A stretch of DNA of 64,000 nt, from positions 1,989 through 65,988 of the forward strand of contig JAHFMX010000005.1 in assembly GCA_023267635.1 (NCBI GenBank). The letters are read 5' to 3'. This stretch comes from a bacterium (GTDB lineage: Bacteria > Patescibacteriota > Minisyncoccia > Phycocordibacterales > UBA5272). The number at the start of each line of letters is the position of its first letter. Position 1 is the stretch's first letter. Below, piece by piece: positions 13,770 through 47,310 of this stretch. Below the pieces are notes generated by a model. That model was given only the letters and a program-made list of their open reading frames with translations, was not told the DNA's origin and made no database searches. Both the position numbers and the translations under genes were made by a program.

Positions 13770-14516
13770 TCATTTCACCTGAACATGACTAAAGGTCGTG
13801 CTGGAGATGGTGCCTTTACCGTCCTTCACGCCAACCGCGATGCCGTTTTTGGCAGCAACCCGTGCATTCCACTGCTTTTCCGATTCAGCTCCAACGCGGG
13901 GTTCAACCTGAATAGCAGAGCACTGGGACGGCATCCCAGAGATAAGGCGATCCGCGTAGCAACCACGCTTGTTAGCAGCAGTTGCCTCTGGATGCACCCA
14001 GCCCCAGAACGCGCCGCCTGCTGGAGGTGGTGAAAGCACTGCCTCTTTTTGGTCAGACACAGGCTTGCGACTGTCGGCCACGTTGCCACCTTTCTTCGGC
14101 GCCTTCTTGGGCGGTGCTTTTTGCACAACAGGAACTTCCTTGCCGACACATTTTTCGCCGACGATTTTCTCCACCTCGGAGGCAGAGACGCCGAAAGTTT
14201 CAACCTTCGGGACTTTTTGCGCCGCGAGTTTCAGTTGATCGACTTCGTCCTGAAGTTTTTTCAGTTCGACCTTGTGGGCCACCTTGGCTTCCTTGCGGTC
14301 ACCCAGGTTGTCACACAAAAGAAAGACGGAAAAGAGGAACAGGAGGGCGGCCGCAATAAATGCGCCGATCGCCATCTTCTTCCACTTTTGCGTTTCCTGC
14401 TTGGATTCGCCGAGTTTGCTGTTGAGCTCGTCAGCGACAGTTTTCAAGCGGACCGAATAATCGGAATCGCTTTCGCCTTGGCCTTTTTCAAAGCCGTTCG
14501 GGTTCATGACTTGCAT
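13770..14516 (-). CDS. Bitopic membrane protein with coiled-coil and Lys/Pro-rich ectodomain, in GC-rich islet
   Basis: 248 aa; one TM (MAIGAFIAAALLFLFSVFLLC), coiled-coil KKLQDEVDQLKLAAQK, PPKKAPKK tract, C-terminal domain GAFWGWVHPE...; local GC about 57% vs about 40% background, which generates the many overlapping spurious ORFs on both strands. Confidence 0.55.
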   Translation of the reverse strand: MQVMNPNGFEKGQGESDSDYSVRLKTVADELNSKLGESKQETQKWKKMAIGAFIAAALLFLFSVFLLCDNLGDRKEAKVAHKVELKKLQDEVDQLKLAAQKVPKVETFGVSASEVEKIVGEKCVGKEVPVVQKAPPKKAPKKGGNVADSRKPVSDQKEAVLSPPPAGGAFWGWVHPEATAANKRGCYADRLISGMPSQCSAIQVEPRVGAESEKQWNARVAAKNGIAVGVKDGKGTISSTTFSHVQVK

Positions 14517-14650
14517 GAGATTTCTCCTTCAAAAAGGTTTTCAAATAAAAGAACTAGCTTCGAGTGGGCCGTGTATGCACCACGCTCTTAAGTATTAGTA
14601 TACAGTAAATTATAAAAAAGTCAATAGCTTCATTCATTATGTTTGGATAT

Positions 14651-14676
14651 AAAAAACCGACCCTGAGTAGGGTCGG
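14651..14676 (-). terminator. Rho-independent terminator
   Basis: aaaaaa + hairpin ccgaccctgagtagggtcgg, downstream of 14706..15410. Confidence 0.7.
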
Positions 14677-14705
14677 TTGCCTTCAAAAGAAAGCTTGTGG
14701 GAGAA

Positions 14706-15410
14706 TTACTCCTGAAAACGAGGGGCGTCCCCTGGCAAGCACGCGAACGTGTTGTGTTGAGGGTGTCCTTGCCAGTTGAGGCGGCCCCAGGTTTTACCTG
14801 TCCCGCAAACGGGGGCATGTCCTTGCGACATGACCTGCGAAGCCTTGCCTGTGACAAGGCCTTCTGCTTTTTGGCGAGCCTTTGCTTCACAGGTCGGGGT
14901 GTCAGCTTCCTTGGTGACGACGCCGTCAATGTTGCAGAAGACGCCGCGAGTCGAAGACTGAACACCGCCTTGGTGTCCGTAGCCAACGTTTTCGTGTTGA
15001 TGTCCTTGTGGAACCGCAACACGCTGACCTTGGTTGCTCATCATTGGGCAAAACACATTGCCGGCGAGAAAGCCGAGCAATCCGCCGCCTTCGGTGTGTT
15101 TGGCATCGTTACCATCCCGTGCTCCGAGATAGCGTCCGCCGCGTTCCACCAGTCCAGCGCAGAAACTGCTACTGCCTTGAGTTGAACCAAACGGAGCACT
15201 CGAACCGTAGTACGGTTGTGGTTGCGCGACAATAATGTTCTGACCACCGACGTGTCCACCGCTGTTTTGGGTGCACCACATGCCGTTGGTAAGAATCACC
15301 GGAGGCGAACCCGCGGGAATCAGTCCGCTGTTGGGATAGCAAGCAGCAGAAGCCGCTTGAACACCACACAGAAAAGCCAAAGCTGCGAGAGTTTTGAAAA
15401 ACGTGCTCAT
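14706..15410 (-). CDS. Secreted Cys/Gly/Gln-rich protein of unknown function, in GC-rich islet
   Basis: ATG at 15410 preceded by AAGGAG; signal peptide MSTFFKTLAALAFLCGVQAASAA; 10 Cys in mature part; GC about 57%. Confidence 0.55.
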   Translation of the reverse strand: MSTFFKTLAALAFLCGVQAASAACYPNSGLIPAGSPPVILTNGMWCTQNSGGHVGGQNIIVAQPQPYYGSSAPFGSTQGSSSFCAGLVERGGRYLGARDGNDAKHTEGGGLLGFLAGNVFCPMMSNQGQRVAVPQGHQHENVGYGHQGGVQSSTRGVFCNIDGVVTKEADTPTCEAKARQKAEGLVTGKASQVMSQGHAPVCGTGKTWGRLNWQGHPQHNTFACLPGDAPRFQE

Positions 15411-15488
15411 GACGAACTCCTTGAAATTGAAACGATTTGAAAGGGCAACTGAGCGTAGATTTAACGGAACTAATTCCACCCTATCTAG

Positions 15489-15507
15489 CATGTATACAGT
15501 ATACATG
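15489..15507. promoter_or_regulatory. Perfect 19-bp palindrome (candidate operator) in divergent intergenic region
   Basis: catgtatac-a-gtatacatg between 14706..15410 (-) and pilB (+). Confidence 0.35.
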
Positions 15508-15628: not shown

Positions 15629-17434
15629 TTGAGTGCTATGTGTATTTTTATGCGGTCGGGTACATGGATAGCGAAAAATATAATCGAGATGACCACATCT
15701 CTCTTTATTTTTCTGGTATATACTAATGCCATGACAATTGTCTTTGATGATGCACTCCAAAACCATAGACTTGACGAACTTCGTAAAGACGAAGAAGAGC
15801 AGCTCGTAAAAATCCTTTCTGACAAATACGGACTTCCTTATATTGATTTGCGAGGAATAGCGCCAGAACCTGACGCAATGCAATTTGTGAAAGAAGAAGA
15901 AGCGCGAGCCGCAGGATGTGTGCCTTTTAAGGTGGTTGGGCGTAAATTATATGTTGCCACTCTCTCCCCTTCTAATTCAAAATTAGAAGAACTTATTCGT
16001 CCTATTGAAACTAGGGGGTCAGAAATTATTCTCTATCTTTGTTCTCACGCGTCTCTTGAACATGTACTTTCTCGTTACGCGGATTTGAACCAATCAACAA
16101 AAGTTGAGAGTGGGATGCTTGAACTAACCAAAGAAAAGATGGTTACACTTATGGCGAGTTTCAGTAACATCGACGAGCTGCGTCAGCAATTCGATCTTCT
16201 CCTTGGTTCACCTGTGCTCTACAAAACAACACGAGTGATAGAACTCATTGTTGCTGGGGCTCTTAAGTTTGATGCGTCAGACATTCACATCGAACCAGAG
16301 GAAGAGAAAGTGCGTCTGCGGTATCGTTTAAATGGTGTGTTGGATGACATTGCTTTCTTTGATTTTGCTGCGCTTAAAAACATCACCAGTCGATTGAAGC
16401 TTCTCTCAGGACTTAAACTCTCCACAACGGCGAATGCTCAGGACGGGCGATTTAGTATTGATCTAGGAGATGTTGAGGTAGACGTTCGCGTGTCTGTTGT
16501 TCCAGGAAATTATGGTGAATCTTTCGTAATGCGTTTACTTGATCCACGACACACTGTTTCTAATCTGGATAACATTGCGTTCCCTGCACGACTCCGCGAG
16601 CTTGTTGAACACTCACTCGTTAAACCAAACGGTGTTATTTTAACTACTGGGCCAACAGGATCTGGAAAAACAACGACACTCTACGCGTTTTTACATAAGG
16701 TATATAATCCTGAAGTAAAAATTATTACGATTGAAGATCCAATCGAATATCACTTTGAAGGTATTACACAAACTCAGGTAGAGGAAGAAAAAGGATATAC
16801 ATTTCTTTCTGGTCTTCGAGCGGCGCTTCGCCAAGACCCTGACGTAATCATGGTGGGAGAAATTCGAGATGAAGACACAGCTAAAGTAGCGATTAACGCA
16901 GCCCTCACAGGACACTTGGTGCTTTCAACACTTCACACCAACAACGCTGCTGGAACTATTCCACGTTTAATTGATCTTGGCATAAATCCAAAAGTTATTG
17001 CGGGAGCGCTTTCTCTTGCACTTGCTCAGCGCCTTGTGAGAACTCTCTGTCAAGAATGTAAAGCCGCCTATGAAACAACAGAAAAAGAAGCTCGTATTAT
17101 TACGACTATTTTGGGTGATATGAAAACATCTGGTAAAGAACCTGAGATGATGGGGCATGTTCCAGCGCTCACCTACTCTATATTTAAACCAGTTGGATGT
17201 GCTAAGTGTGAAATGACAGGATACAAAGGGCGTATCGGAATCTTTGAGGCAATTGTAATGACTGAGGCTGTTGAAAAGACGCTTATTACGAATCCGAGCG
17301 AGCGAGAAGTGCGTGCGGCAGCCAAAGATCAAGGAATCCCTACCCTTCGTGAAGATGCTATAATTAAGGTACTCGAAGGTATTACTTCACTTGATGAAGT
17401 TTCCAGAGTGGTAGATCTTTATAGTGAAAGCTAA
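15629..17434 (+). CDS. pilB: Type IV pilus / type II secretion assembly ATPase (PilB/GspE family)
   Basis: GspII_E N-domain (LSDKYGLPYIDL), Walker A GPTGSGKTT, Asp box DPIEYHF, Walker B IMVGEIRD, His box GHLVLSTLHTN, tetracysteine CQEC...CAKC; track start is TTG, ATG candidates 15638/15689/15731. Confidence 0.85.
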   Translation: MSAMCIFMRSGTWIAKNIIEMTTSLFIFLVYTNAMTIVFDDALQNHRLDELRKDEEEQLVKILSDKYGLPYIDLRGIAPEPDAMQFVKEEEARAAGCVPFKVVGRKLYVATLSPSNSKLEELIRPIETRGSEIILYLCSHASLEHVLSRYADLNQSTKVESGMLELTKEKMVTLMASFSNIDELRQQFDLLLGSPVLYKTTRVIELIVAGALKFDASDIHIEPEEEKVRLRYRLNGVLDDIAFFDFAALKNITSRLKLLSGLKLSTTANAQDGRFSIDLGDVEVDVRVSVVPGNYGESFVMRLLDPRHTVSNLDNIAFPARLRELVEHSLVKPNGVILTTGPTGSGKTTTLYAFLHKVYNPEVKIITIEDPIEYHFEGITQTQVEEEKGYTFLSGLRAALRQDPDVIMVGEIRDEDTAKVAINAALTGHLVLSTLHTNNAAGTIPRLIDLGINPKVIAGALSLALAQRLVRTLCQECKAAYETTEKEARIITTILGDMKTSGKEPEMMGHVPALTYSIFKPVGCAKCEMTGYKGRIGIFEAIVMTEAVEKTLITNPSEREVRAAAKDQGIPTLREDAIIKVLEGITSLDEVSRVVDLYSES

Positions 17435-17816: not shown

Positions 17817-18809
17817 ATGTCTACCCCTACTCCAAAAATTGCAAAAGTTGAAAGTGAAGAGACACGACATTTGGACAGCACTCTTCGTCCAGATACTTTT
17901 TCTGATTATATTGGACAAGAAACCATTAAAAAGAATCTTCATATTCTTCTTACCGCAGCAAAAGAACGCGGCGCCCCACCTGAACATATTCTTTTATACG
18001 GTCCCCCAGGACTTGGAAAGACGACACTTGCCCATCTCATCGCAAAAGAGTTGAATGCTAACTTAAAATTATCGAGCGGTCCTGCGATTATGAAAGTTGG
18101 AGACCTCGCTGCGATACTAACGAACCTCACTCCGGGGGACGTTCTCTTCATTGATGAAATTCATCGTTTAAATAAAATGATTGAAGAGGTTCTTTACCCT
18201 GCAATGGAATCAGGGCAGCTTGATATCGTGATCGGTAAAGGTCCTTCAGCCAGAACAATACAACTCGACCTTCCTCCATTTACACTTATCGGAGCAACGA
18301 CTCGTATTTCTCTTCTCTCGTCCCCTCTTCGTTCACGATTCTCAGGAGGAGTACACAGACTTCAATATTATACAGAAGACGAGATTGCAACGATTGTAAA
18401 AAATAGTGGGAAAATTTTAGGGGCGGACGTTCCACATGACGCAGCGTTTGAAATTGCAAAGCGTTCTCGCTTCACACCGCGTATTGCAAACTACTACCTC
18501 AAACGTGCTCGAGATTACGCTCAAGTCCATAAAGCAAACATTGATCGTGACATTGTAGACGTTTCTCTTTCGCTTCTTGAGATTGACCAATTCGGTCTTG
18601 GTATTGCTGAACGTATGGTGCTTGATTCTCTTATTAACACATTCAATGGTGGGCCTGTTGGATTAAACACACTCGCCGCAGCAACAGGAGAAGAGATGGC
18701 AACTATTGAAGACGTAACTGAGCCGTACCTTCTCCAGATTGGGATGATCGAACGAACGCCACGCGGGAGAAAAGCGACAGACAAAGCGCTTCTTCATTTT
18801 AAGAAATAA
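17817..18809 (+). CDS. ruvB: Holliday junction branch-migration helicase RuvB
   Basis: LLYGPPGLGKTTLAHLIA Walker A, AAA+ sensor regions, typical RuvB length 330 aa. Confidence 0.9.
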   Translation: MSTPTPKIAKVESEETRHLDSTLRPDTFSDYIGQETIKKNLHILLTAAKERGAPPEHILLYGPPGLGKTTLAHLIAKELNANLKLSSGPAIMKVGDLAAILTNLTPGDVLFIDEIHRLNKMIEEVLYPAMESGQLDIVIGKGPSARTIQLDLPPFTLIGATTRISLLSSPLRSRFSGGVHRLQYYTEDEIATIVKNSGKILGADVPHDAAFEIAKRSRFTPRIANYYLKRARDYAQVHKANIDRDIVDVSLSLLEIDQFGLGIAERMVLDSLINTFNGGPVGLNTLAAATGEEMATIEDVTEPYLLQIGMIERTPRGRKATDKALLHFKK

Positions 18810-18810
18810 T

Positions 18811-19305
18811 ATGTCTACGAGAATTTTAGGGATTGATCCTGGGTTTGATCGACTTGGTGTGTGTGTTTTAGAAAAAGAAGGGGCTGCTGAAACACTTCTT
18901 TTTTCAACTTGTATCATAACTTCAAAAAAAGATTCTTTCGAAGCACGCCTTGCGTCCATCGCAACGGAGCTTACTGTCATACTTAAAAAGTATGCTCCGA
19001 CAGAGCTTGCGATTGAAAAACTTTTCTTAGCCAACAATCAGCGCACCGTGATGAATGTTTCTGAGGCGCGCGGAGTACTGCTCTATATATGTCACATCAA
19101 TGGACTCTCAGTTCATGAATACTCTCCACCACAAATAAAAGTTGCTGTTACGGGGTATGGAAAAGCAACCAAGAATGATATTGCGCTTATTGTTCCGAAG
19201 ATACTTAAAGAGCCTCTCGATGCGAAACTTTTGGATGACGAATTAGACGCTATTGCTATTGCTTTAACACATAGTGCACATAGAAAAATGAATAGTTGGA
19301 AATAG
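18811..19305 (+). CDS. ruvC: Holliday junction resolvase RuvC
   Basis: ILGIDPGFDRLGVCVLE N-terminal catalytic Asp motif; immediately follows ruvB. Confidence 0.8.
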   Translation: MSTRILGIDPGFDRLGVCVLEKEGAAETLLFSTCIITSKKDSFEARLASIATELTVILKKYAPTELAIEKLFLANNQRTVMNVSEARGVLLYICHINGLSVHEYSPPQIKVAVTGYGKATKNDIALIVPKILKEPLDAKLLDDELDAIAIALTHSAHRKMNSWK

Positions 19306-24714: not shown

Positions 24715-26052
24715 TTACACTAACATTGCGCGGATATCTTCAATCTCTCTAGATAATTGTGGATTTTCTTTTAAAACTCCCTTAATCTTTTCGTATGAGT
24801 GGATTACCGTTGTATGATCTCTTCCCCCTAACCTGTCTCCAATCATTGGATATGAGATATCAAAATCCTCTCGTAAAATATACATAACAATCTGACGAGG
24901 TTTTACTACATCCTTTCTTCTTGTTTTGTTATAAATATATACATCAGGGATATGATAATAGTCGGCGATAAGTTTTACAATTTCTGGTATTGAGATGCTT
25001 TTCTTTACTCGAACATTATTTTTTAGGAGATTTTTTACATCAGCTAGTGTAATCGCCTGTTGTTTAACTTGGATATAGCCAAGTATTGAGGTCATAACAC
25101 CTTCCAATTCTCGAATATTACCCTGAACTGTTTCAGCAACGTACTGTAAAACCTCTTGTGGAATCTTTTCAGAATAATCTTTTGTTTTAGCCATTAAAAT
25201 AGCAAGCCTTGATTCAAGTGAAGGAATGTTTACGTCCACTATCATTCCGTGATTAAAGCGTGACCTGAGACGGTCTTCTAGTCCCACAATAAGATTTGGG
25301 TGTTTATCAGAAGAAAAGATAATTTGTTTATTCATTTCATAGAGAGAATTGAAGAGGTGAAATAATTCATCTTGCGTTCTTTCTTTTCCATTAATGAATT
25401 GAATATCATCCATAATAAAGACATCATATTTTCTGTACTTCTCTTTAAAAGAGTTGATTTTATTCATGTTCGTCGCATTCACATAGTCCATATAGAACTT
25501 TTCAAGAGATGTATAAAACACTTTCCTCTCAGGGTGTTTCTTTTTAACGGTGTTCCCTATTGCTTGCATGAGGTGCGTCTTTCCAAGCCCAGTGTTTCCG
25601 TAGACAAAGAAAGGATTGTAGACGATTCCTAGTCCATTAATAACTGCTTGCGAGCAAGCATAAGCAACCTCATTAAAAGAACCAACAATAAAAGTGTCGA
25701 AGGTGTATCGAGGATTAAGTCCGTCATCCTTATTAATATATAAATCTTGAAGAGGAAGAGGTTGCCCAGTGATCGCTATGTGCTGCGCCTTCTTTTGAAG
25801 GTTTTCTGGTTTTACAACCGTAAAGACAATAGAGCGAACACTTTCATGAATGGTGCGCAAGATACGAAGGATGAATTTGTGGTATTTCTGATTGAGCCAG
25901 TCCTTAACGAATTCATTAGGAACACCAATAGTTACCTCACCATCTTTGTAGTCAATAATACGCGTGTTCTTAAACCACGTATTGAAGTTAACTCGAGAAA
26001 GTTCAATCTCAATCTGAGATAATGCACTGTTCCAGAGTTGTTGGTAATCCAT
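24715..26052 (-). CDS. dnaA: Chromosomal replication initiator protein DnaA
   Basis: AAA+ Walker A GNTGLGKTHLMQAIGN, sensor/box VII, C-terminal DNA-binding domain with GGRDHTTVIHS signature. Confidence 0.9.
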   Translation of the reverse strand: MDYQQLWNSALSQIEIELSRVNFNTWFKNTRIIDYKDGEVTIGVPNEFVKDWLNQKYHKFILRILRTIHESVRSIVFTVVKPENLQKKAQHIAITGQPLPLQDLYINKDDGLNPRYTFDTFIVGSFNEVAYACSQAVINGLGIVYNPFFVYGNTGLGKTHLMQAIGNTVKKKHPERKVFYTSLEKFYMDYVNATNMNKINSFKEKYRKYDVFIMDDIQFINGKERTQDELFHLFNSLYEMNKQIIFSSDKHPNLIVGLEDRLRSRFNHGMIVDVNIPSLESRLAILMAKTKDYSEKIPQEVLQYVAETVQGNIRELEGVMTSILGYIQVKQQAITLADVKNLLKNNVRVKKSISIPEIVKLIADYYHIPDVYIYNKTRRKDVVKPRQIVMYILREDFDISYPMIGDRLGGRDHTTVIHSYEKIKGVLKENPQLSREIEDIRAMLV

Positions 26053-27356: not shown

Positions 27357-28385
27357 TTACAGTTGATTTAAACAGGCGGTCAGTTCACAAGCATAAGATT
27401 TTACAGCGCACATGTTGTATTGGCTGTCGCCCGGATTAATCGGACAAACCCATTTTGGAACACTCTGATTAAACCCCGTTTCTTGTTTGCAGTCAGCGCT
27501 TGGAGAATGAGGAACGGTACCGTTTGCACAACAGTTATACGACGCAAAGACCCCCGCCATTGTCGGAATGTTTGGGTATACCTGATTCGTCGCTGCGATT
27601 TTTCCTTTAAGCAATGAAACTCCGCGAGCTATATTTGTTTCAGGGTTAAGGATGGAAGCATCACAAGGTGTTTTTTGGTTTATTTGCATAAGTCCGCAAT
27701 CATAGGTACCATTTGGGTTTGTGTTTTGAGCAATTTCTCTAGCACTTGATTCTTTGCACATGAGAGCGATCACCATTTTATAGTCCACGCCAGCATTACT
27801 GGCTTCACGTTGTATGGTGGGTAAATATTTTTGGTAATTACATCCTGTAAGTACTGTGCAACGAGCACCCCCACAGACACCACCAGTTGATTTGAGTGAA
27901 GCTATAACAGTGCTTGTTGGTTCACAGGTTTTAGATGAGTTGTTGGACGAAGGAAAACTCCCCGTCGCCCCTCCTCCGCCCATGTCCCCTCCTCCCCCAC
28001 TCACAATCCCACCACCTTTTCCTGCTGCAGCTCGTAATCCATCTAACCCAACATTTCCAGAAAGTAGATCTTTGTTAAAGGTATAAAGAATAACAAACAA
28101 AGAAAGAACACCAAGCAATCCAAGTGTTACTCTCTTAATTTCATCATTAGACTTCCTCACCCCTGCTTCTGATGCCTGCATTCTATATACCCCAGCTCGT
28201 GCGTACATTACTCCTGCTGCAAGTACAGAGATCATAATAGCCAATGAATACAGAAAGCTTGTAGAAGAGAACAAAGAAACAGCTTGTCCTGTAGTAAACG
28301 TTGGAGCAATCCCCTCCTTTCCAAGAGATTGGAAGTATGAGGGCTCGAGGGAGGTGTAGTTTTTATTATTCGGATTCATCGGCAA
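27357..28385 (-). CDS. Fusion of VirB2-pilin-like double-TM module (Gly-rich tail) with family-1 lytic transglycosylase (SLT) domain; VirB1-like function
   Basis: N-module two hydrophobic helices separated by charged loop + GKGGGIVSGGGGDMGGGGATG; C-domain YKMVIALMCKESSAREIA...YDCGLMQINQ (catalytic E-S, GLMQ motif); first gene position of the T4SS-like operon (distal end). Confidence 0.7.
   Translation of the reverse strand: MPMNPNNKNYTSLEPSYFQSLGKEGIAPTFTTGQAVSLFSSTSFLYSLAIMISVLAAGVMYARAGVYRMQASEAGVRKSNDEIKRVTLGLLGVLSLFVILYTFNKDLLSGNVGLDGLRAAAGKGGGIVSGGGGDMGGGGATGSFPSSNNSSKTCEPTSTVIASLKSTGGVCGGARCTVLTGCNYQKYLPTIQREASNAGVDYKMVIALMCKESSAREIAQNTNPNGTYDCGLMQINQKTPCDASILNPETNIARGVSLLKGKIAATNQVYPNIPTMAGVFASYNCCANGTVPHSPSADCKQETGFNQSVPKWVCPINPGDSQYNMCAVKSYACELTACLNQL
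27960..28359. repeat. 400-bp perfect direct repeat, copy 1 (identical to 30140..30539)
   Basis: Base-by-base identical over 400 bp by visual alignment; covers 5' coding module of 27357..28385. Confidence 0.9.
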
Positions 28386-29655
28386 AAAGGTTTGTATTAA
28401 GAAGGAAAAGAGAGCCGTCTTGTCTTCGTATAAAACTAATAAGGTCAGATCCTGCGCTTGCTGTGAGGTGAGTCACATCAATCTGTCCGTAGGTTTCTGG
28501 AAAAGAATAGAGTGTATAGGTTTCTCCATTCTGTGCATTTACAATGGAAAGTGTATCGTCAAACATAAACCTTCCTTGATACCAGTCATCAGGCAACCCT
28601 TCAACGCTTTCTGGAATAGATTGAGGAATACCACAGACAAAGTATGGAGACACTGTTCCAACACACTTAGAAGCAAGGGTTTTTGTTGTGAAGGAAGCAA
28701 TCTTTCCAACGCTTACTCCAAAGGTTGCAAGCCCAGACTGAGACCACATGCTGTTAAGCATTGGACCATTAGATGAAGGAGTGCTTAGGAGACCTGTCTT
28801 GCCTCCTACGACTGAAGAAAATGAAGGAAGAGCAACCGTTGCCCCCTCCACATACGCAGACGCATGTGATGTTGCATAGAGCTGCTCGCCTCCGTAGGAA
28901 AGGGTCCATTCTGAAAAAGGAGAATCTGCCACACGCGCTGTACCTCGCAGTGAAAGTGAGTAGATAGTTGATCCGTTTGATCCAGGAACAACATAACTAA
29001 CCGTCGACAAATTTTTACTAACTGCAGTAGATGAAATATTTTGAGGTAGATAGGTTGTATCAATAAGTGGCTCAGGATCTCTCCCCTCTTGAACATTTGG
29101 GATAGAAGCCAGGATGCTTACAATAGTTTTCCTGTCGGCACCTAGAGAGCGCATAACAATACGATCACCTCCCGCCCATATGTATGCATCAAACACCCCT
29201 GGAATGGTTGTATTACTTATTTGATATGTTGTACCAGACTCCACCACATGACCGTATACGTACCCTGTTACTCGGTCAACAAACATAAGGACGGTGGTTG
29301 TGGCGCGAACTGTTTTTGTTGTTGAAATGGTTGTTGTCCCCACCGTTGAGGTAGACGTTACTTCTCGTAGTATGGGGCGACTCACGAAAACATTTCCTGT
29401 TGCAGGTGCGCCCCAAATACGATTGAAAGGAATCGCCGAAGCGGGAGTAATTTCAGTTTCTGTATTTGTGCCAGGCTCATCCCCTTGAAAGATAAAAGCA
29501 AAACGAGCAGGCAAATCACGAAGTGAAAAAGCACTTGTGGGTGTCTGTAGAGTTGGAGCTGATTCAGGTTTTGAAAAAAGAAAATACCAAACAATAACAC
29601 CAAAAGCAAACAGTGCGATAAGAGCAAATAAAATCTGAAGACGGCGATGTTCCAT
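28366..29655 (-). CDS. Bitopic membrane protein with large Thr/Ser-rich extracytoplasmic domain (T4SS-like locus)
   Basis: 429 aa; N-terminal TM LQILFALIALFAFGVIVWYFLF; no recognised domain. Confidence 0.5.
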   Translation of the reverse strand: MEHRRLQILFALIALFAFGVIVWYFLFSKPESAPTLQTPTSAFSLRDLPARFAFIFQGDEPGTNTETEITPASAIPFNRIWGAPATGNVFVSRPILREVTSTSTVGTTTISTTKTVRATTTVLMFVDRVTGYVYGHVVESGTTYQISNTTIPGVFDAYIWAGGDRIVMRSLGADRKTIVSILASIPNVQEGRDPEPLIDTTYLPQNISSTAVSKNLSTVSYVVPGSNGSTIYSLSLRGTARVADSPFSEWTLSYGGEQLYATSHASAYVEGATVALPSFSSVVGGKTGLLSTPSSNGPMLNSMWSQSGLATFGVSVGKIASFTTKTLASKCVGTVSPYFVCGIPQSIPESVEGLPDDWYQGRFMFDDTLSIVNAQNGETYTLYSFPETYGQIDVTHLTASAGSDLISFIRRQDGSLFLLNTNLFADESE

Positions 29656-29695
29656 GTAGTTTCAGTATAGCAAGTACTTCGCTTCTTTTTGTGAG

Positions 29696-30553
29696 TTATC
29701 TACCAGTAAAGGACGCATGAAAGTGACGTGCTGTAGATTTACCGCAACCAGACTCGGGTTCGTCCCAGAAAATGAATCCACTATACCCATATTTCACATT
29801 ACATGGTGGGCTGTTGGCAATAATTGATTTTGATTTTAGAAATGTGCCCAGTTGTTCGGTGTACTGTATATCTACGGCTTCTTTTCCTGGTCCATGGTTT
29901 GAGTTTGTGCTATGTCCAGGCTCTGATCCGCCAGTCACCATAAGCGAACAGTTGCATTCTGCTTTTAGTTTAAGCAACATATTGACGGTGGCTGGATTCA
30001 TGTTTCCAACATTCGTACAGCTTGTGTCTGAACCAACACAAGCAGGTTTGTTTATGGTGATTCCTTGAGCAGACAATGCGTTGCGATTTGCTTGCTCCGT
30101 TCCGTTTGTTGAGGGTGTTGGAACGGGTGTACCAAATCCCCCCGTCGCCCCTCCTCCGCCCATGTCCCCTCCTCCCCCACTCACAATCCCACCACCTTTT
30201 CCTGCTGCAGCTCGTAATCCATCTAACCCAACATTTCCAGAAAGTAGATCTTTGTTAAAGGTATAAAGAATAACAAACAAAGAAAGAACACCAAGCAATC
30301 CAAGTGTTACTCTCTTAATTTCATCATTAGACTTCCTCACCCCTGCTTCTGATGCCTGCATTCTATATACCCCAGCTCGTGCGTACATTACTCCTGCTGC
30401 AAGTACAGAGATCATAATAGCCAATGAATACAGAAAGCTTGTAGAAGAGAACAAAGAAACAGCTTGTCCTGTAGTAAACGTTGGAGCAATCCCCTCCTTT
30501 CCAAGAGATTGGAAGTATGAGGGCTCGAGGGAGGTGTAGGAAATCAGTGCCAT
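29696..30553 (-). CDS. Fusion of the same VirB2-pilin-like membrane module with peptidase M15 (VanY-like D-Ala-D-Ala carboxypeptidase / LAS metallopeptidase) domain
   Basis: N-terminal 133 aa identical to 27357..28385 product; C-domain SEPGHSTNSNHGPGKEAVDI (H..D zinc ligands) and ARHFHASF (second His). Confidence 0.65.
   Translation of the reverse strand: MALISYTSLEPSYFQSLGKEGIAPTFTTGQAVSLFSSTSFLYSLAIMISVLAAGVMYARAGVYRMQASEAGVRKSNDEIKRVTLGLLGVLSLFVILYTFNKDLLSGNVGLDGLRAAAGKGGGIVSGGGGDMGGGGATGGFGTPVPTPSTNGTEQANRNALSAQGITINKPACVGSDTSCTNVGNMNPATVNMLLKLKAECNCSLMVTGGSEPGHSTNSNHGPGKEAVDIQYTEQLGTFLKSKSIIANSPPCNVKYGYSGFIFWDEPESGCGKSTARHFHASFTGR
30140..30539. repeat. 400-bp perfect direct repeat, copy 2
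   Basis: Identical to 27960..28359; 2180 bp offset. Confidence 0.9.
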
Positions 30554-30558
30554 AGATA

Positions 30559-31533
30559 CTAATTGGGTCGCGTGTCGAAGATAACCTCAATCTCATTTGT
30601 TGCTTTCTGCAGTTTACGCTTCGCACTTTCTACCATCACAGAAAGAGTGCGGATCCCCACACTATTTTCTCTTGGACGAAGAGAAAGAAGTGTTTTTTCC
30701 ATAGGGGTAACAGGAAGACCATCTAAGTACCATGAATATGAAGCGGTATTTTCGAATTCATTGTTTGAAGAAAAATAAAATGGAACAAGAGAAAGTGTTA
30801 TATCTTTAGATGTTTCAAGTCTTCTCCAGAATGTTTTTGTAAGGTTTGTTCCGAGCACTTCGTCGTATGAGTACAAAAGTGGCATAACAGCATGAGGAGA
30901 AATTGAAGTTCTTTTTTCCGCCACACTTCCACGTGGGCTTCTCACAACAACTCGCACATCGTTGGAGTCGCTTAAATAATCGAGCGCAATAGTTGCAACA
31001 GATCTTCCCACGCCAGAAGCGTTTTCTAGAAACTCTCCGTTTAGATACCAGCTATATGCAAGACTTGAGGCTTGAATTCTGACACCGCCTTCACTTAATG
31101 AAGGTAATGCAGTAACACGAACAACGGCCCCCTCAGAAGGAAGAGATCTTCCTTGATAAAAGGGAGGAACAAAACTTTCTCGTGATTCATAGAGAAGTTC
31201 AACTGTCTGAGAGGAAACAATAAATGATCCACTAGCCCCACCCCCGTCTACAGTAATGACGGTATATGAAATAGGGATTTCTTGCCCAGAAGCGCCAGCG
31301 GTTACAGTTACTTTTTTAGCACCAAGGCCCGAAAGAAGTGTCGTTCCTCCGCTCTTCCAGGTTATCATCGCCCCATTAACATCAAAGGAGGCACTCGTAA
31401 GAGTAATGGTTGTTTCTTGATACGGTGCAGGATTTGTTGGGCTCATACTAACGCTCACATCAAGTGCTGCGAAAGCGTACATTGGAACAAAGAGAAGAGC
31501 GAAAGAGAGTAGCAGTCGTGTGGCTAGCGTCAT
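30559..31533 (-). CDS. Secreted protein of unknown function (T4SS-like locus)
   Basis: Signal peptide MTLATRLLLSFALLFVPMYAFAA; beta-rich 324 aa. Confidence 0.5.
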   Translation of the reverse strand: MTLATRLLLSFALLFVPMYAFAALDVSVSMSPTNPAPYQETTITLTSASFDVNGAMITWKSGGTTLLSGLGAKKVTVTAGASGQEIPISYTVITVDGGGASGSFIVSSQTVELLYESRESFVPPFYQGRSLPSEGAVVRVTALPSLSEGGVRIQASSLAYSWYLNGEFLENASGVGRSVATIALDYLSDSNDVRVVVRSPRGSVAEKRTSISPHAVMPLLYSYDEVLGTNLTKTFWRRLETSKDITLSLVPFYFSSNNEFENTASYSWYLDGLPVTPMEKTLLSLRPRENSVGIRTLSVMVESAKRKLQKATNEIEVIFDTRPN

Positions 31534-33347
31534 AGTACTTTTGATTGTGCCACTTCATCTTTCATGGCTTTAATCTGAAGAAGTTGAGACGGATCACTCG
31601 TGATGATCTGATCTTCCGTGTATGAAGCAACAACTTTTATCGCTACGTGCTTAAGTCCGGCAAAGAAGATTCCCTCCCCTACACCAGACTCAAGCAGGAG
31701 AAACTTCTCTTCGTCGGTGAGGTTAAATGTTTTTTGTACAAGGTCTATAGAAGAAGGTGATTGTTTAAGAAGGATTTGAATTGAGGAGTTTGTGATAATA
31801 GGAAGTCCGTATGGAGACTTAAGGAAGTCTCCAACGTCTTGTGTAATGGTTGCAAGTCCAAGGTAATACTTTCGTCCGCGCTTAGCGAGTCCGAAGAGGA
31901 ATGATGCAGTGTCATCGTTTTTCATCATGATCCAAGCTTCATCCACCACTAAAAGTCTTTTTCGAATATCTTTTCGTACCGCATTCCAAATGTAGTGAGT
32001 AATAATATACATCGCAACAGGTTTAAGCTCATCCTCCATGTCTCGGATAGAGAAACACACAAGCTTTTTATTGATATCAACGTTTGATGGCTGATTAATA
32101 AACCCAGACCACGTTCCTTTTGTGTATTTAGAAAGTCGCGCAAGAAGATCGTCTGACCCCCCTATTCCTTGAAGAACAGTTTCAAAGTCAGAAAGAAGTG
32201 GTGGTTCAAGTTTTGTGAAATCAACATCACCATTAATATCTTTAAGCGCGTATGTTTCGGTGATTGCTTGGTCTATGATCGCATCTTCTTCTGGGGTAAG
32301 TCCTCCAAGCATCACACGGAAAAGTCCAACCAAGTTAACAATGTTTGATCGAAGTACTTCAGACGGCGACTCATCTTCTGTTGGATGTGGTAAATCAAAA
32401 GGGTTAATGTGGTGGTCACTTGTGAGAGAAATATCAAAATATCTTCCCCCTACTGATTCAGCGAGGTATTCGTATTCTCGTTCAGGGTCAATAATAATCA
32501 CCTCAGTATCAAACATAAGCGTACGAAGAATTTCAAGTTTTGTTGTATAACTTTTACCAGAACCAGATTTTGCAAAAACAATCGAATTGTAGTTCTCAAG
32601 AGAAAAACGATCAAAGAGGATGAGTGATCCATTGTGACGATTGAGCCCGTAGAGAATTCCTTTGTCTGACGAAAGGTCAAACGACACGAATGGGAAAAAC
32701 GATGAGAGTGGTGATGTGTTCAGTTTGTTTTTTATCTGCAACTGGTCTTGTCCCAAAGGAAGAGTAGAGAGGAAACCAACATCTTGCTGGAACAAGGCTG
32801 GTTTTACATATACCAATCGACTTTCTAGTATATTTTTTATCTCATTTTCAACTTTATCAACTTCCGCTTCTGTTGACCCATAGATAGAAATATACAGAGA
32901 CACTTCAAACATTTTTTCTTGCGCTTGAGTAAGTCCGTCACGCAGGTCTTCGAGATCTTTGTATGCTACATCAAGTGTTGGGTCACGCACGAGCCCCTTT
33001 TCTTCACGTGTCATAATCTGACTTTCAACCTCAGCAACTTTTCTTTGGAATTTTTTCATCACATCCCCTGTGTCGAGTGGAGTTACGTGAATAGCAACAT
33101 CAAATACTTTGTCTAGGTTAATAATTGGGCTTAACCAGTTATCCGTAAGGAATCGAGGGTATGAGATAACGAAATAAGAGCGCACAATATTGGTACCGAG
33201 ATTAAGATTCTTTGGGCCAACACCCAAAGCAGAAGGCGCAATAATATCCTTTAGTTGCATTTCTGCCACCTTGTAGACTTGCTCAGGCAAGATTGGGCTT
33301 ACTGGCGAAGCTCCCTGTTTTTTATTTATAAAATCAAATATTCCCAT
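31530..33347 (-). CDS. VirB4/TrbE-family type IV secretion ATPase, C-terminal (NTPase) portion
   Basis: Walker A FAKSGSGKSYTT, Walker B LLVVDEAWIMM (DEAW typical of VirB4), 605 aa. Confidence 0.75.
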   Translation of the reverse strand: MGIFDFINKKQGASPVSPILPEQVYKVAEMQLKDIIAPSALGVGPKNLNLGTNIVRSYFVISYPRFLTDNWLSPIINLDKVFDVAIHVTPLDTGDVMKKFQRKVAEVESQIMTREEKGLVRDPTLDVAYKDLEDLRDGLTQAQEKMFEVSLYISIYGSTEAEVDKVENEIKNILESRLVYVKPALFQQDVGFLSTLPLGQDQLQIKNKLNTSPLSSFFPFVSFDLSSDKGILYGLNRHNGSLILFDRFSLENYNSIVFAKSGSGKSYTTKLEILRTLMFDTEVIIIDPEREYEYLAESVGGRYFDISLTSDHHINPFDLPHPTEDESPSEVLRSNIVNLVGLFRVMLGGLTPEEDAIIDQAITETYALKDINGDVDFTKLEPPLLSDFETVLQGIGGSDDLLARLSKYTKGTWSGFINQPSNVDINKKLVCFSIRDMEDELKPVAMYIITHYIWNAVRKDIRKRLLVVDEAWIMMKNDDTASFLFGLAKRGRKYYLGLATITQDVGDFLKSPYGLPIITNSSIQILLKQSPSSIDLVQKTFNLTDEEKFLLLESGVGEGIFFAGLKHVAIKVVASYTEDQIITSDPSQLLQIKAMKDEVAQSKVL

Positions 33348-33351
33348 AGTG

Positions 33352-33993
33352 TTAGTTGTTGTTTACCTTAGGCGCTTCTCGGTCTTGTTCCCCTGGATTA
33401 AAAAGTTTATAGAAGAGCTCAACGACTTCTTCTGTTCCAAGCTTTTGTGAGCGTAATCCAAAGCGATTAAGTCCTTGCATAACCGTTGCTACACGTTGTT
33501 CAAGCTGAATTCGAGCTGCATCAAAAGACCCCTGCTCTCCGCCAGTAGAAGAGTTAGCTAAACCAAATGATAAGAATTTGTTCGCTTGATTTTGATTTTG
33601 TGTTTGAGCAGGCAAGTACGGAATCACAATGAAGAAATGTTTTGTCATAATGTTTGTTTCTTCTGTAAACTTTGTGATGAAGCCCATGTACTCATGAATT
33701 TGAATCTTTAAAAGATCCTCCTTTACCTCCCCTGATCGCTGCTGCAGGAGATCCATGTATGGTTTGATATTGAGTCTTCTTGATTGGATGAAAAATTGAA
33801 TTGGGAAATCAAGTGAATTAAGAAGGTTTTGAAACTGAAGAAGAATCGCCTGCTGCTCATCTTCACTTTTGAGGGACAAGTTGAGTGATGAAGTAATAAG
33901 CACGGCACGGAGTTCGCCGTTTTTAAGTACAACAACACCATCACGCACGCGTTCGATCGGTACAAATTGTTGTGTTGCTATTCCAGAAGCCAT
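33352..33993 (-). CDS. VirB4-family N-terminal domain encoded as separate ORF (split VirB4)
   Basis: FVPIERVRDGVVVLKNGELRAVLITS resembles VirB4 N-terminus; stop TAA then ATG of NTPase ORF 4 nt later in a different frame; combined length about 818 aa equals a normal VirB4. Confidence 0.55.
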   Translation of the reverse strand: MASGIATQQFVPIERVRDGVVVLKNGELRAVLITSSLNLSLKSEDEQQAILLQFQNLLNSLDFPIQFFIQSRRLNIKPYMDLLQQRSGEVKEDLLKIQIHEYMGFITKFTEETNIMTKHFFIVIPYLPAQTQNQNQANKFLSFGLANSSTGGEQGSFDAARIQLEQRVATVMQGLNRFGLRSQKLGTEEVVELFYKLFNPGEQDREAPKVNNN

Positions 33994-34029: not shown

Positions 34030-34452
34030 CTATTCCTGTGAGTTACGATCAAGAACATCAAGACCAAGAGATACTTCATGAAGTCTATCTTTGTTTACTT
34101 TTGAGACAGTTATTTCTTTTTCTGCATCAGCAACTACTTTTTCTATATTAGAAGTGCTCTCAGTTTGTTCCTTTGGCTGCTTCCAGGTATAAATTTTACT
34201 CCCTGTGTAGTAAGCGAAAGCGCTCTCAAGTAAATCTCCAAAGGGTCTATTGTTAATTTTTACAAAAGCAAGAGAAAGAAATAATCCAGAAACGACCAGA
34301 ATAAGAACAACGGCGATGATTTTTATTGAGATAAACGTCCAAATAATGAAGGAGAATCCGCCCGCACCTAAAATATACCCAAATTGTTTGAGGGTAAGAG
34401 GTCCGACAACCTTGTCTTCCATGTCGATAAATTGAGGGACTCGGAATTGCAT
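34030..34452 (-). CDS. VirB3-like small membrane protein
   Basis: 140 aa, hydrophobic hairpin (FGYILGAGGFSFIIWTFISIKIIAVVLILVVSGLFLSLAF), immediately upstream of VirB4 as in canonical loci. Confidence 0.5.
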   Translation of the reverse strand: MQFRVPQFIDMEDKVVGPLTLKQFGYILGAGGFSFIIWTFISIKIIAVVLILVVSGLFLSLAFVKINNRPFGDLLESAFAYYTGSKIYTWKQPKEQTESTSNIEKVVADAEKEITVSKVNKDRLHEVSLGLDVLDRNSQE

Positions 34453-46332: not shown

Positions 46333-47310
46333 GTGATTGCACTTATGTTCCCTATTTCTTCAGCACACGCTGGCTTTTTTTCGTCTTTTACTGAGAAAGT
46401 GAAAGCGGTTTTCCTTAGTCCGGCTGAGGATGGTTCACCAGAAGAGTCTGCCACATCTCAAACAATGGCTGTTTTTAAGCCTGTTGTAGTTAGTGAAGAA
46501 AATGAGATTGATACGTTAGACTCTTCTTCAACGGGGGTGCTTTCTGCAACAACCGGATCACTTCGAGTTTCTACTGAAAATATTGAATACCCAATGAACG
46601 ACACGATTAGTGTCTACGAAGTAAAAAAAGGAGACACTATCGGCATGGTTGCTGAGCTTCACGGTGTTTCTAAGAATACTATTGTATGGGCAAACAATTT
46701 AAAATCTGAAAAACTTACACCAGGAGACATTCTCGTTATTCTTCCTATTACAGGCGTTCGTCATACTGTTAAGAATGGTGACACTGTGACTTCAATTGCT
46801 AAGAAATACAAAGGAGACACAGACGATATCGCAAAATATAACGGTATCGCAGCGGACGCAAAGCTTGTCGTCGGAGAGATTGTGCTCGTACCAGAAGGAG
46901 AAATTGCTGCGGTTGTCGTAAAGGGTAAGCCAAGCGTATCTGTTTCTTCTGGGAATTCAACACCAAACGGATTCTTTACTCGACCGCTTGTGGGAGGGAG
47001 AAAGACACAGGGCATTCACGGCAACAACGGAGTTGATATTGCAGCTCTTGTTGGAACCCCCGTTCTTGCTGCTGCAGATGGACAGATAATCGTTGCTCGT
47101 AACTCAGGATATAACGGTGGATATGGAGACATGATTATTATCAAGCACAATGGAAATATTCAAACCGTGTACGCTCACTTAAGTTCTGTAGGCGTTGTAA
47201 CTGGACAGTATGTTTCAAAAGGCCAAACAATCGGCGCGGTTGGTAATACAGGACGATCAACTGGACCACATCTTCACTTTGAGGTACGTGGAGCGAAGAA
47301 CCCCTTCTAG
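46333..47310 (+). CDS. LysM-domain M23 family metallopeptidase (peptidoglycan endopeptidase)
   Basis: Two LysM repeats (YEVKKGDTIGMVAELHGVS; HTVKNGDTVTSIAKKY), M23 motifs HGNNGVDIAA, HLSS, GPHLHFEV. Confidence 0.85.
   Translation: MIALMFPISSAHAGFFSSFTEKVKAVFLSPAEDGSPEESATSQTMAVFKPVVVSEENEIDTLDSSSTGVLSATTGSLRVSTENIEYPMNDTISVYEVKKGDTIGMVAELHGVSKNTIVWANNLKSEKLTPGDILVILPITGVRHTVKNGDTVTSIAKKYKGDTDDIAKYNGIAADAKLVVGEIVLVPEGEIAAVVVKGKPSVSVSSGNSTPNGFFTRPLVGGRKTQGIHGNNGVDIAALVGTPVLAAADGQIIVARNSGYNGGYGDMIIIKHNGNIQTVYAHLSSVGVVTGQYVSKGQTIGAVGNTGRSTGPHLHFEVRGAKNPF

Follow-up and report, generated by a model that had tools for sequence, protein, structure and literature searches.

Patescibacteria depend on host bacteria. 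In Southlakia epibionticum, the one species tested, a type IV secretion system (T4SS) and unusual VirB2-like pilins were reported to be essential for epibiotic growth (PMC10633639, PMC12857230). VirB2-like pilins and VirB1-like hydrolases are already known from the T4SSs of Patescibacteria (PMC12102498, PMC12857230, PMC10633639), and both the location of T4SS genes near dnaA and, for Paceibacteria, the presence of VirB1-like genes alongside virB4 have been described (PMC12102498). Here we analyzed a 64,000-nucleotide stretch of a contig from an ultrasmall patescibacterium (a Nomurabacteria-like member of the Paceibacteria; JAHFMX010000005.1 of assembly GCA_023267635.1, positions 1,989 to 65,988 of the forward strand), termed the window below, in which two genes at the end of a T4SS cluster, gene A and gene B, encode different predicted cell wall hydrolases that start with the same two-helix module. 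Our conclusion is that a pilin-family module is probably carried by these two T4SS wall hydrolases, that its two copies are kept identical by recurrent gene conversion, and that it would serve a shared docking or assembly role. Concerted evolution by gene conversion is known from tufA/tufB, from babA/babB and sabA/sabB of Helicobacter, and from rRNA operons.

Results

An identical 400-bp repeat at the start of two genes

The features on which the analysis centers are the following.

27357..28379, minus strand: gene A, 340 aa from the ATG at 28379 (alternative start TTG 28385); module and linker, then a Cys-rich SLT domain (VirB1-like)
27960..28359, minus strand: repeat copy 2, codons 8-140 of gene A; same module and linker as copy 1; 174.6 bits with the module hidden Markov model (HMM)
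28366..29655, minus strand: gene X, 429 aa; N-terminal transmembrane (TM) helix, disordered linker, predicted seven-bladed beta-propeller
29674..30038, minus strand: catalytic core of the predicted peptidase, a swappable segment without nucleotide similarity to the closest relatives though both flanks align
29696..30553, minus strand: gene B, 285 aa; leaderless module assigned to the pilin family, Gly linker, predicted LAS-type (M15/M74/Hedgehog-like) zinc peptidase domain
30140..30539, minus strand: repeat copy 1, codons 6-138 of gene B; predicted pilin-family two-helix module and Gly-rich linker; 174.2 bits with the module HMM

An offset scan and a repeat search of the window agreed that positions 27960-28359 and 30140-30539 match at all 400 bp, in direct orientation and with an offset of 2180, as the original prediction had stated. 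Its further statement that each copy forms the N-terminal ~133 aa of a separate gene likewise held for genes A and B, and we add that the minus strand is the coding strand for both. A chance origin is impossible for an exact 400-bp repeat within 64 kb. Only 1.8 kb lie between the copies, and beyond both ends of the repeat the identity falls to about the random level, except for four scattered matches at 27954-27958. The 5′ limit of the repeat is the point at which genes A and B abut different upstream neighbors (the end of gene X, which is overlapped by the start of gene A, and a gene for a 324-aa protein before gene B), and the 3′ limit coincides with the onset of the unrelated catalytic domains. 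All four junctions between gene and repeat are in frame and yield full-length conserved proteins.

Orthologues of genes A and B were found in many metagenomes. Within individual genomes, the following identical tracts are shared by the two module copies.

Window: 400 bp
L003: 405 bp
L004: 328 bp
L012: 323 bp, on a 775-kb contig
P0003/P0059: modules identical at the protein level, on a 121-kb contig from the Joint Genome Institute (JGI)

Between genomes, the module differs at 26-50% of the amino acids, has 57-72% nucleotide identity, and shows a proportion of synonymous differences (pS) of 0.59-0.78, i.e., saturation, whereas in the same comparison (with L003) amino acid identity is 97% for VirB4 and 94% for DnaA. 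The explanation of the repeat as a very recent duplication is therefore too simple, as homogenization persists across lineages with saturated synonymous sites. Ongoing gene conversion, which had been offered as the second option, is strongly supported by copies that are identical within several genomes and diverged between them.

Kinship of the module with T4SS pilins

The module has two hydrophobic helices (residues 34-58 and 82-99), a loop (residues 59-81) with six Lys/Arg residues compared to one in the N-terminal tail, and a Gly-rich tail (18 Gly in 42 residues), in agreement with the helix, charged loop, and poly-Gly description given originally. AlphaFold2 (AF2) modeled it as a helical hairpin (34-65 and 69-99) with predicted local distance difference test (pLDDT) scores of >90, followed by a disordered linker (112-141). 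As Lys and Arg are concentrated in the loop, with one in the N-terminal tail, an N-out/C-out topology is predicted, which is the topology required for enzymes acting outside the cell.

The link to pilins came via relatives: SLT homologues carry the family PF18895 (T4SS_pilin) ahead of the SLT domain, and such PF18895-PF01464 fusions are present in other Patescibacteria (L024, L025, L026, L029, L031). When a profile of 59 window-type module sequences was compared with a profile of PF18895 modules, hhalign returned a probability of 96.3% (E=1.5e-9) over 94 columns, compared to 0.3% in a control with PrgI, another two-TM protein of the cluster. The alignment takes in motifs outside the membrane helices, namely, Y-x-x-L-E at the mature N terminus and N-x-x-L after helix 2, and reciprocal HMM matches between the two types of modules had E values from 1e-8 to 5e-6. 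A search of 1.84 billion representatives with the module-only profile retrieved 1143 proteins at E up to 1e-3; among 82 distant matches that were checked, 62 belonged to PF18895 and 7 to PF04956 (TrbC/VirB2). The C-terminal partners of these 82 include SLT, M23, GDSL lipase, and fn3 domains, so that the module is indeed fused to other C-terminal domains in homologues, a point that had been suggested for checking. By these profile comparisons, the module is assigned as a divergent, leaderless domain of the T4SS_pilin/VirB2 family. The VirB2/TrbC-like architecture proposed at the outset thus stands as family kinship; it is not accompanied by a direct Pfam match or by a leader.

The proteins start 5 to 7 residues before YTSLE, a position that aligns with residue 31, just past the signal peptide, of leader-bearing homologues; the absence of a leader was judged from this alignment, and no signal peptide predictor was run. 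Within the window-type clade, the module is always fused to an enzyme domain of 150-200 aa. Public gene calls place the start at an internal Met (MISVLAAG...), giving 239 instead of 285 aa and 287 instead of ~340 aa (both window genes, P0001, and L038 1916-2779); these truncated calls drop the conserved N-terminal YTSLEPS segment and the first helix. A different organization was seen in another patescibacterial lineage, at L029 (4040-7712) and also at L027, L028, and L030, where at least five free T4SS_pilin genes are arrayed behind a T4SS_pilin-SLT fusion with a signal peptide; the L029-type array includes a tandem double pilin of 335 aa.

The two enzymes

The SLT domain of gene A matched PF01464 with E=1.4e-9 (37.9 bits, cut-off 21.3). 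Its E210-S211 pair, which corresponds to the catalytic Glu in the E-S motif, and 14 Cys residues are invariant in 14 orthologues, and gene A is accordingly classified, on sequence grounds, as an SLT lytic transglycosylase of the VirB1-like type.

For the C-terminal domain of gene B, no significant Pfam match was obtained with the window protein, and scanning 46 orthologues singly gave sub-threshold M15_3 and Hedgehog matches only (best Peptidase_M15_3 E=0.12, in 2 of the 46). E211, H214, H220, D228, E265, H277, and H279 are invariant in these 46 orthologues and include the putative zinc motifs H220-x7-D228 and H277-x-H279 (family pattern H-x(3-7)-D and H-x-H). The only match of a gene B profile among PDB sequences was the N-domain of Sonic hedgehog (E=0.21), with the H..D zinc motifs of the two in register, and the AF2 model of the domain (pLDDT >90) has the LAS fold. 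The domain is thus predicted to be a zinc peptidase of the LAS superfamily, for which "M15-like" is a fair description. As there is no significant Pfam match to M15, we filed gene B under the LAS superfamily and not under VanY; of the two enzyme assignments made originally, the SLT held fully and the M15 peptidase in this broader sense, while a VanY identity was not demonstrated.

A proposed shared role for the module in the secretion system

The identity of the module suggests that one T4SS partner recruits both enzymes or that the two assemble together. Through the shared module, both would present one identical surface to its partner, which could be the membrane platform of the T4SS or, if the module polymerizes like VirB2, neighboring subunits. 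A glycan-cutting and a peptide-cutting activity might in this way be delivered together at the secretion apparatus, each enzyme held to its hairpin by a flexible Gly-rich tether of ~30 residues, and the target opened might be the organism's own wall or that of the host.

Several observations speak against this interpretation. In Pfam, the window module matched neither PF18895 nor PF04956 with the E cutoff relaxed to 10, none of 46 orthologues matched a pilin family with a cutoff of 1, and gene B of L021 reached only E=0.033 with the pilin model. PDB sequences of VirB2, TraA, or TrwL were not matched, nor were these proteins among the top structural matches. The module lacks a leader peptide, its two helices are joined by a longer loop than in typical pilins, and it does not form a protein of its own; it may be a membrane anchor only. 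With regard to gene conversion, L021 and L022 keep the gene order B-X-A with modules that are only 27% identical, which shows that homogenization is not universal, and popping of bubbles in de Bruijn graphs may mask rare differences between copies, which leaves near-identity robust and the exact 100% less so. Of the homologous recombination machinery that gene conversion needs, RuvB and RuvC were identified within the 64 kb covered.

Several of these points feed the strongest competing explanation, in which the module is a pilin-derived anchor, comparable to the TM segment at the N terminus of PrgK or TraG, that is never polymerized, and in which the identity of the copies is a neutral by-product of recombination. 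The missing leader, the longer loop, and the constant fusion within the clade fit this explanation, as does the membrane anchoring of T4SS hydrolases in Gram-positive bacteria (PMC12857230); moreover, once copies are identical, RecA-dependent conversion would sustain itself without selection. What points the other way is that the module is homologous to proteins whose family carries the annotation T4SS pilin. Two HMMs matched only fused modules, with no free-standing pilin-like open reading frame (ORF) in the 64-kb window or within ~20 kb around related clusters, and a Pfam scan of small ORFs likewise gave no free-standing pilin; VirB2-like pilins are reported to be widespread in Patescibacteria (PMC12102498), and their absence here is unfavorable to a module with a pure anchor function. 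We regard the anchor explanation as possible but, on balance, somewhat doubtful.

The docking or assembly role has a more far-reaching version, which we consider unlikely: an armed pilus, i.e., a T4SS filament or wall-spanning stalk of pilin subunits, each bearing a peptidoglycan-degrading enzyme on its Gly tether, that would present a glycan cutter and a peptide cutter jointly and drill through the wall of the host or of the organism itself. Conversion would keep the modules able to co-polymerize, and the peptidase core would be swapped between strains via homology arms in the module and gene X, thereby tracking host wall chemistry.

Recurrent gene conversion of the module copies

The ends of the identical tract vary by genome: in L004 the first ~25 codons have diverged between the copies, whereas in L012 it is the linker that has diverged. 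Such varying mosaic tracts are a signature of repeated gene conversion and fit neither a single recent duplication nor selection at the protein level. Based on these sequence comparisons, maintenance of the copies by recurrent, long-lived intrachromosomal gene conversion is strongly supported.

That the module was instead duplicated recently and independently in each genome, or that selection for an identical protein operates without ongoing conversion, is very unlikely. Three more distant relatives (L005, L006, L007) have only genes B and X, so that the SLT paralogue could be young. The SLT genes share their position and junction in all genomes, however, and their SLT domains are 53-66% identical at the amino acid level, i.e., diverged like other genes. 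The mosaic tracts of L004 and L012 are what conversion produces, and in L021 the gene order B-X-A is old and the modules have diverged. Identity at every synonymous site, finally, is not maintainable by selection on the protein.

Recurrent conversion would also allow a fast-evolving module to change in both genes at once. The extracytoplasmic T4SS proteins (the 324-aa protein, B, X, and A; 27357-31533) are 53-64% identical to their L003 orthologues, in contrast to VirB4 (31530-33347, 97%) and DnaA (24715-26052, 94%). Nonsynonymous divergence (dN) was 0.18-0.32 for the module and the enzymes and 0.03 for VirB4, which corresponds to an ~8-fold-faster evolution.

At L024 (4419-5688), the PF18895 module of the SLT fusion gene recurs in the gene next to it with a single mismatch in ~190 nucleotides; the signal peptides of the two differ. 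Homogenization of the module thus occurs also outside the clade of the window.

Exchange of the peptidase core and rearrangements between the repeats

A blastn comparison of L001 with the window aligned both flanks of the peptidase core with 74-80% identity, but not 29674-30038 itself (258-618 in L001). The closest relative (P0008) has 93% amino acid identity to the window in the module, 77% in the linker, and 39% in the core; for the closest relatives overall, gene X is 87-91% identical and the peptidase core only 39-41%. The core exists in at least two deeply diverged classes (...HFHASFTGR and ...HWHVFK), and the distribution of these two is incongruent with the ranking by gene X or DnaA similarity. 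The peptidase core is exchanged between very close relatives, in what looks like a recombination-driven cassette polymorphism. As a side effect of the repeat, the conserved module and gene X flank the exchanged core.

A further side effect is that the repeats are substrates for recombination. A crossover between them would be expected to leave the gene for the 324-aa protein followed directly by module-SLT, and exactly this arrangement, without a peptidase or propeller gene, was found at L015 (2357-3337) and L016 (201-1208). The modules of these two loci are only 32-38% identical to that of the window, and given this high divergence we regard them as old fixed lineages and not as switch variants.

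The original prediction had raised cassette shuffling or phase variation through recombination between the direct repeats. Shuffling stands only in an evolutionary sense, with the core replaced between close relatives and the deletion-type loci L015 and L016. A crossover would delete the peptidase domain together with gene X; this loss is irreversible, and a reversible phase switch is not supported. A programmed switch, in which the peptidase and gene X are silenced and the SLT comes to lie behind the start of gene B, is highly improbable, although the geometry permits it, the expected product arrangement exists at L015 and L016, and one-period cyclic contigs (L033, 2177 bp) would also be expected from excised circles or tandem amplification. 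Such contigs are equally expected as graph artifacts, the L015 and L016 lineages are old, and both genes are conserved together in many species. Both module copies are parts of complete, conserved genes and not silent cassettes, direct repeats lead to deletion, and no invertase or recombinase gene lies nearby, as judged from a Pfam scan of the cluster ORFs of at least 110 aa, which returned no recombinase.

Assemblies breaking at the repeat

Many related contigs end at the repeat. The contigs of L001 and L002 share a 141-nucleotide prefix, and the shared length is 99 nucleotides for L008 and 83 for L009. The SLT contigs of L010, L011, L013, L014, and L017 start inside the module, with the SLT match at the contig end, and the 614,594-bp contig of L038 (GCA_021733405.1) begins right at the 3′ boundary of the repeated module. 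Among 120 clusters of gene X sequences, 70 had a longest contig of 1.7-2.4 kb, with a peak at 1.8-1.9 kb, which matches the length of unique sequence between the two copies (verified directly for L036).

Three short contigs (L033, L034, and L035) carry, in this order, the end of gene X, a module with a gene A-type start, the peptidase, and the start of gene X. The contig of L033, 2177 bp, corresponds to exactly one repeat period and closes on itself. Excised circles or a tandem amplification were set aside as explanations, since a two-copy direct repeat yields the same cycle in an assembly graph.

The breadth of the breaks at the repeat across assemblies rules out, for practical purposes, an assembly artifact, in which the assembler would have duplicated or homogenized the module: assemblers do err at exact repeats longer than k, the cyclic permutations in L033, L034, and L035 are typical of graph cycles, and bubble popping could erase small differences, but the lineage-specific two-copy structure recurs in independent assemblies from varied sources and assemblers (window, L003, L004, L012, and the 121-kb JGI contig), all junctions are in frame and leave conserved proteins of full length, contigs elsewhere end precisely at the repeat edges as a true repeat predicts, and the single mismatch retained in L024 indicates that differences can survive assembly, so that this is the least probable of the explanations considered.

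Genomic context

The genes B-X-A stand at the end of a chromosomal, origin-proximal, monoderm-type T4SS cluster. The following neighboring genes, and two recombination genes elsewhere in the window, were identified.

30559..31533, minus strand: 324-aa secreted Ig-like protein (g324), directly upstream of gene B; weak BiPBP_C match; syntenic in all related loci
31530..33347, minus strand: VirB4-like T4SS ATPase (PF19044 TraG P-loop, E=4.5e-26); L003 orthologue 97% identical at the amino acid level
33352..33993, minus strand: TraC-like/TrsD-like protein (PF26593 TraC-like in orthologues)
34030..34452, minus strand: PrgI/VirB3-like protein (PF12666, E=1.8e-9)
17817..19305, plus strand: RuvB and RuvC (PF05496, E=1.9e-72; PF02075, E=1.2e-34), Holliday junction processing

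The module genes thus adjoin T4SS genes, with the VirB4-like, TraC-like, and PrgI genes immediately upstream, and this synteny is conserved in related loci. Upstream of the PrgI/VirB3-like gene the cluster continues with large proteins without a Pfam match; downstream of gene A lie yidC, rnpA, dnaA, and dnaN, i.e., the T4SS cluster adjoins the replication origin. The nearest named relative is a Candidatus Nomurabacteria metagenome-assembled genome, whose DnaA is 99% identical at the amino acid level and which has ~85% nucleotide identity over 10 kb. Scans for Rfam families and tRNAs found nothing relevant.

Gene X was paired with gene B in all syntenic loci compared. The protein has no Pfam match; its AF2 model (pLDDT 83.8; predicted template modeling score [pTM] 0.75) matched WD40/TolB-type propellers in Foldseek with E ~1e-7. 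According to this model, gene X encodes an N-terminally anchored seven-bladed beta-propeller.

Elsewhere in the window, the G+C content shows a local rise to 0.49 at 13770-15506, compared to ~0.41. The rise coincides with two minus-strand ORFs without a Pfam match, one of which (14706-15506) is Cys- and Gly-rich and secreted-looking, and both adjoin a PilB-like T2SSE ATPase gene (15629-17434). A LysM-LysM-Peptidase_M23 wall hydrolase is encoded at 46333-47310 on the plus strand, ~16 kb off the T4SS cluster.

Discussion

The joining of two predicted wall-degrading enzymes to a pilin-family module suggests a testable link between pilin-like components and the breaching of cell walls. With its module strictly homogenized across many species, the locus is a clear case in nature of concerted evolution confined to one domain, and this in a minimal genome; the swapped peptidase core together with the fast-evolving propeller may point to host-range determinants worth testing. 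There is also a practical side: the repeat systematically breaks short-read assemblies of these genomes beside the origin, and it may be what chiefly or solely prevents closure of these small genomes, as the near genome-sized contig of L038 illustrates. The finding should be of interest to specialists in T4SSs and in the candidate phyla radiation (CPR) and is directly testable.

With regard to novelty, searches of PMC12102498, PMC12857230, and PMC10633639 and of further literature returned no mention of pilin-hydrolase fusions, of strict within-genome homogenization of the module across species, or of a swappable peptidase core; coverage of the wider literature was incomplete. The original description of the arrangement as undescribed agrees with this literature, but the fusions as such are not unique to the locus, since other Patescibacteria carry PF18895 together with PF01464.

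Among known systems, PrgK of pCF10, TraG of pIP501, and CwlT of ICEBs1 resemble genes A and B in belonging to monoderm-type T4SSs, in having an N-terminal membrane tether, and in combining a glycan-cleaving (SLT or muramidase) with a peptide-cleaving activity, by which the wall is opened for the apparatus (PMC12102498, PMC12857230). They differ in that both activities reside on one chain, whereas two polypeptides are used here, and in that their peptidase is of the CHAP, NlpC/P60, or LytM type, whereas here a predicted LAS zinc enzyme is found and the tether, a pilin-family hairpin, is encoded twice by an identical DNA repeat.

The VirB2-like pilins of PF18895, such as the arrays of Southlakia epibionticum and TM7x, share with the module the two-helix hairpin, the Y-x-x-L-E and N-x-x-L motifs, and the position beside virB4. 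The published arrays consist of free-standing small pilins with a leader, whose paralogues are on average 25% and at most 54% identical (PMC12102498). At the present locus, by contrast, there is no leader, an enzyme is attached to the module in every case, and the two copies are 100% identical. Closer in architecture to gene A are the PF18895-PF01464 fusions of L024, L025, L026, L029, and L031, whose SLT domains are 31-43% identical to that of gene A. These proteins differ in having kept their signal peptide and in matching Pfam T4SS_pilin directly; in addition, L029 has a free pilin array, and the paralogous modules of L031 have diverged.

The evolutionary pattern is that of tufA/tufB, the bab and sab genes, and the rRNA operons, i.e., paralogues that are identical within a genome including silent sites, diverged between species, and converted over tracts of variable extent. 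In contrast to these cases, it is one domain of two otherwise unrelated enzymes that is homogenized here, between direct repeats with a spacing of only 1.8 kb, in a minimal-genome episymbiont and within a T4SS operon.

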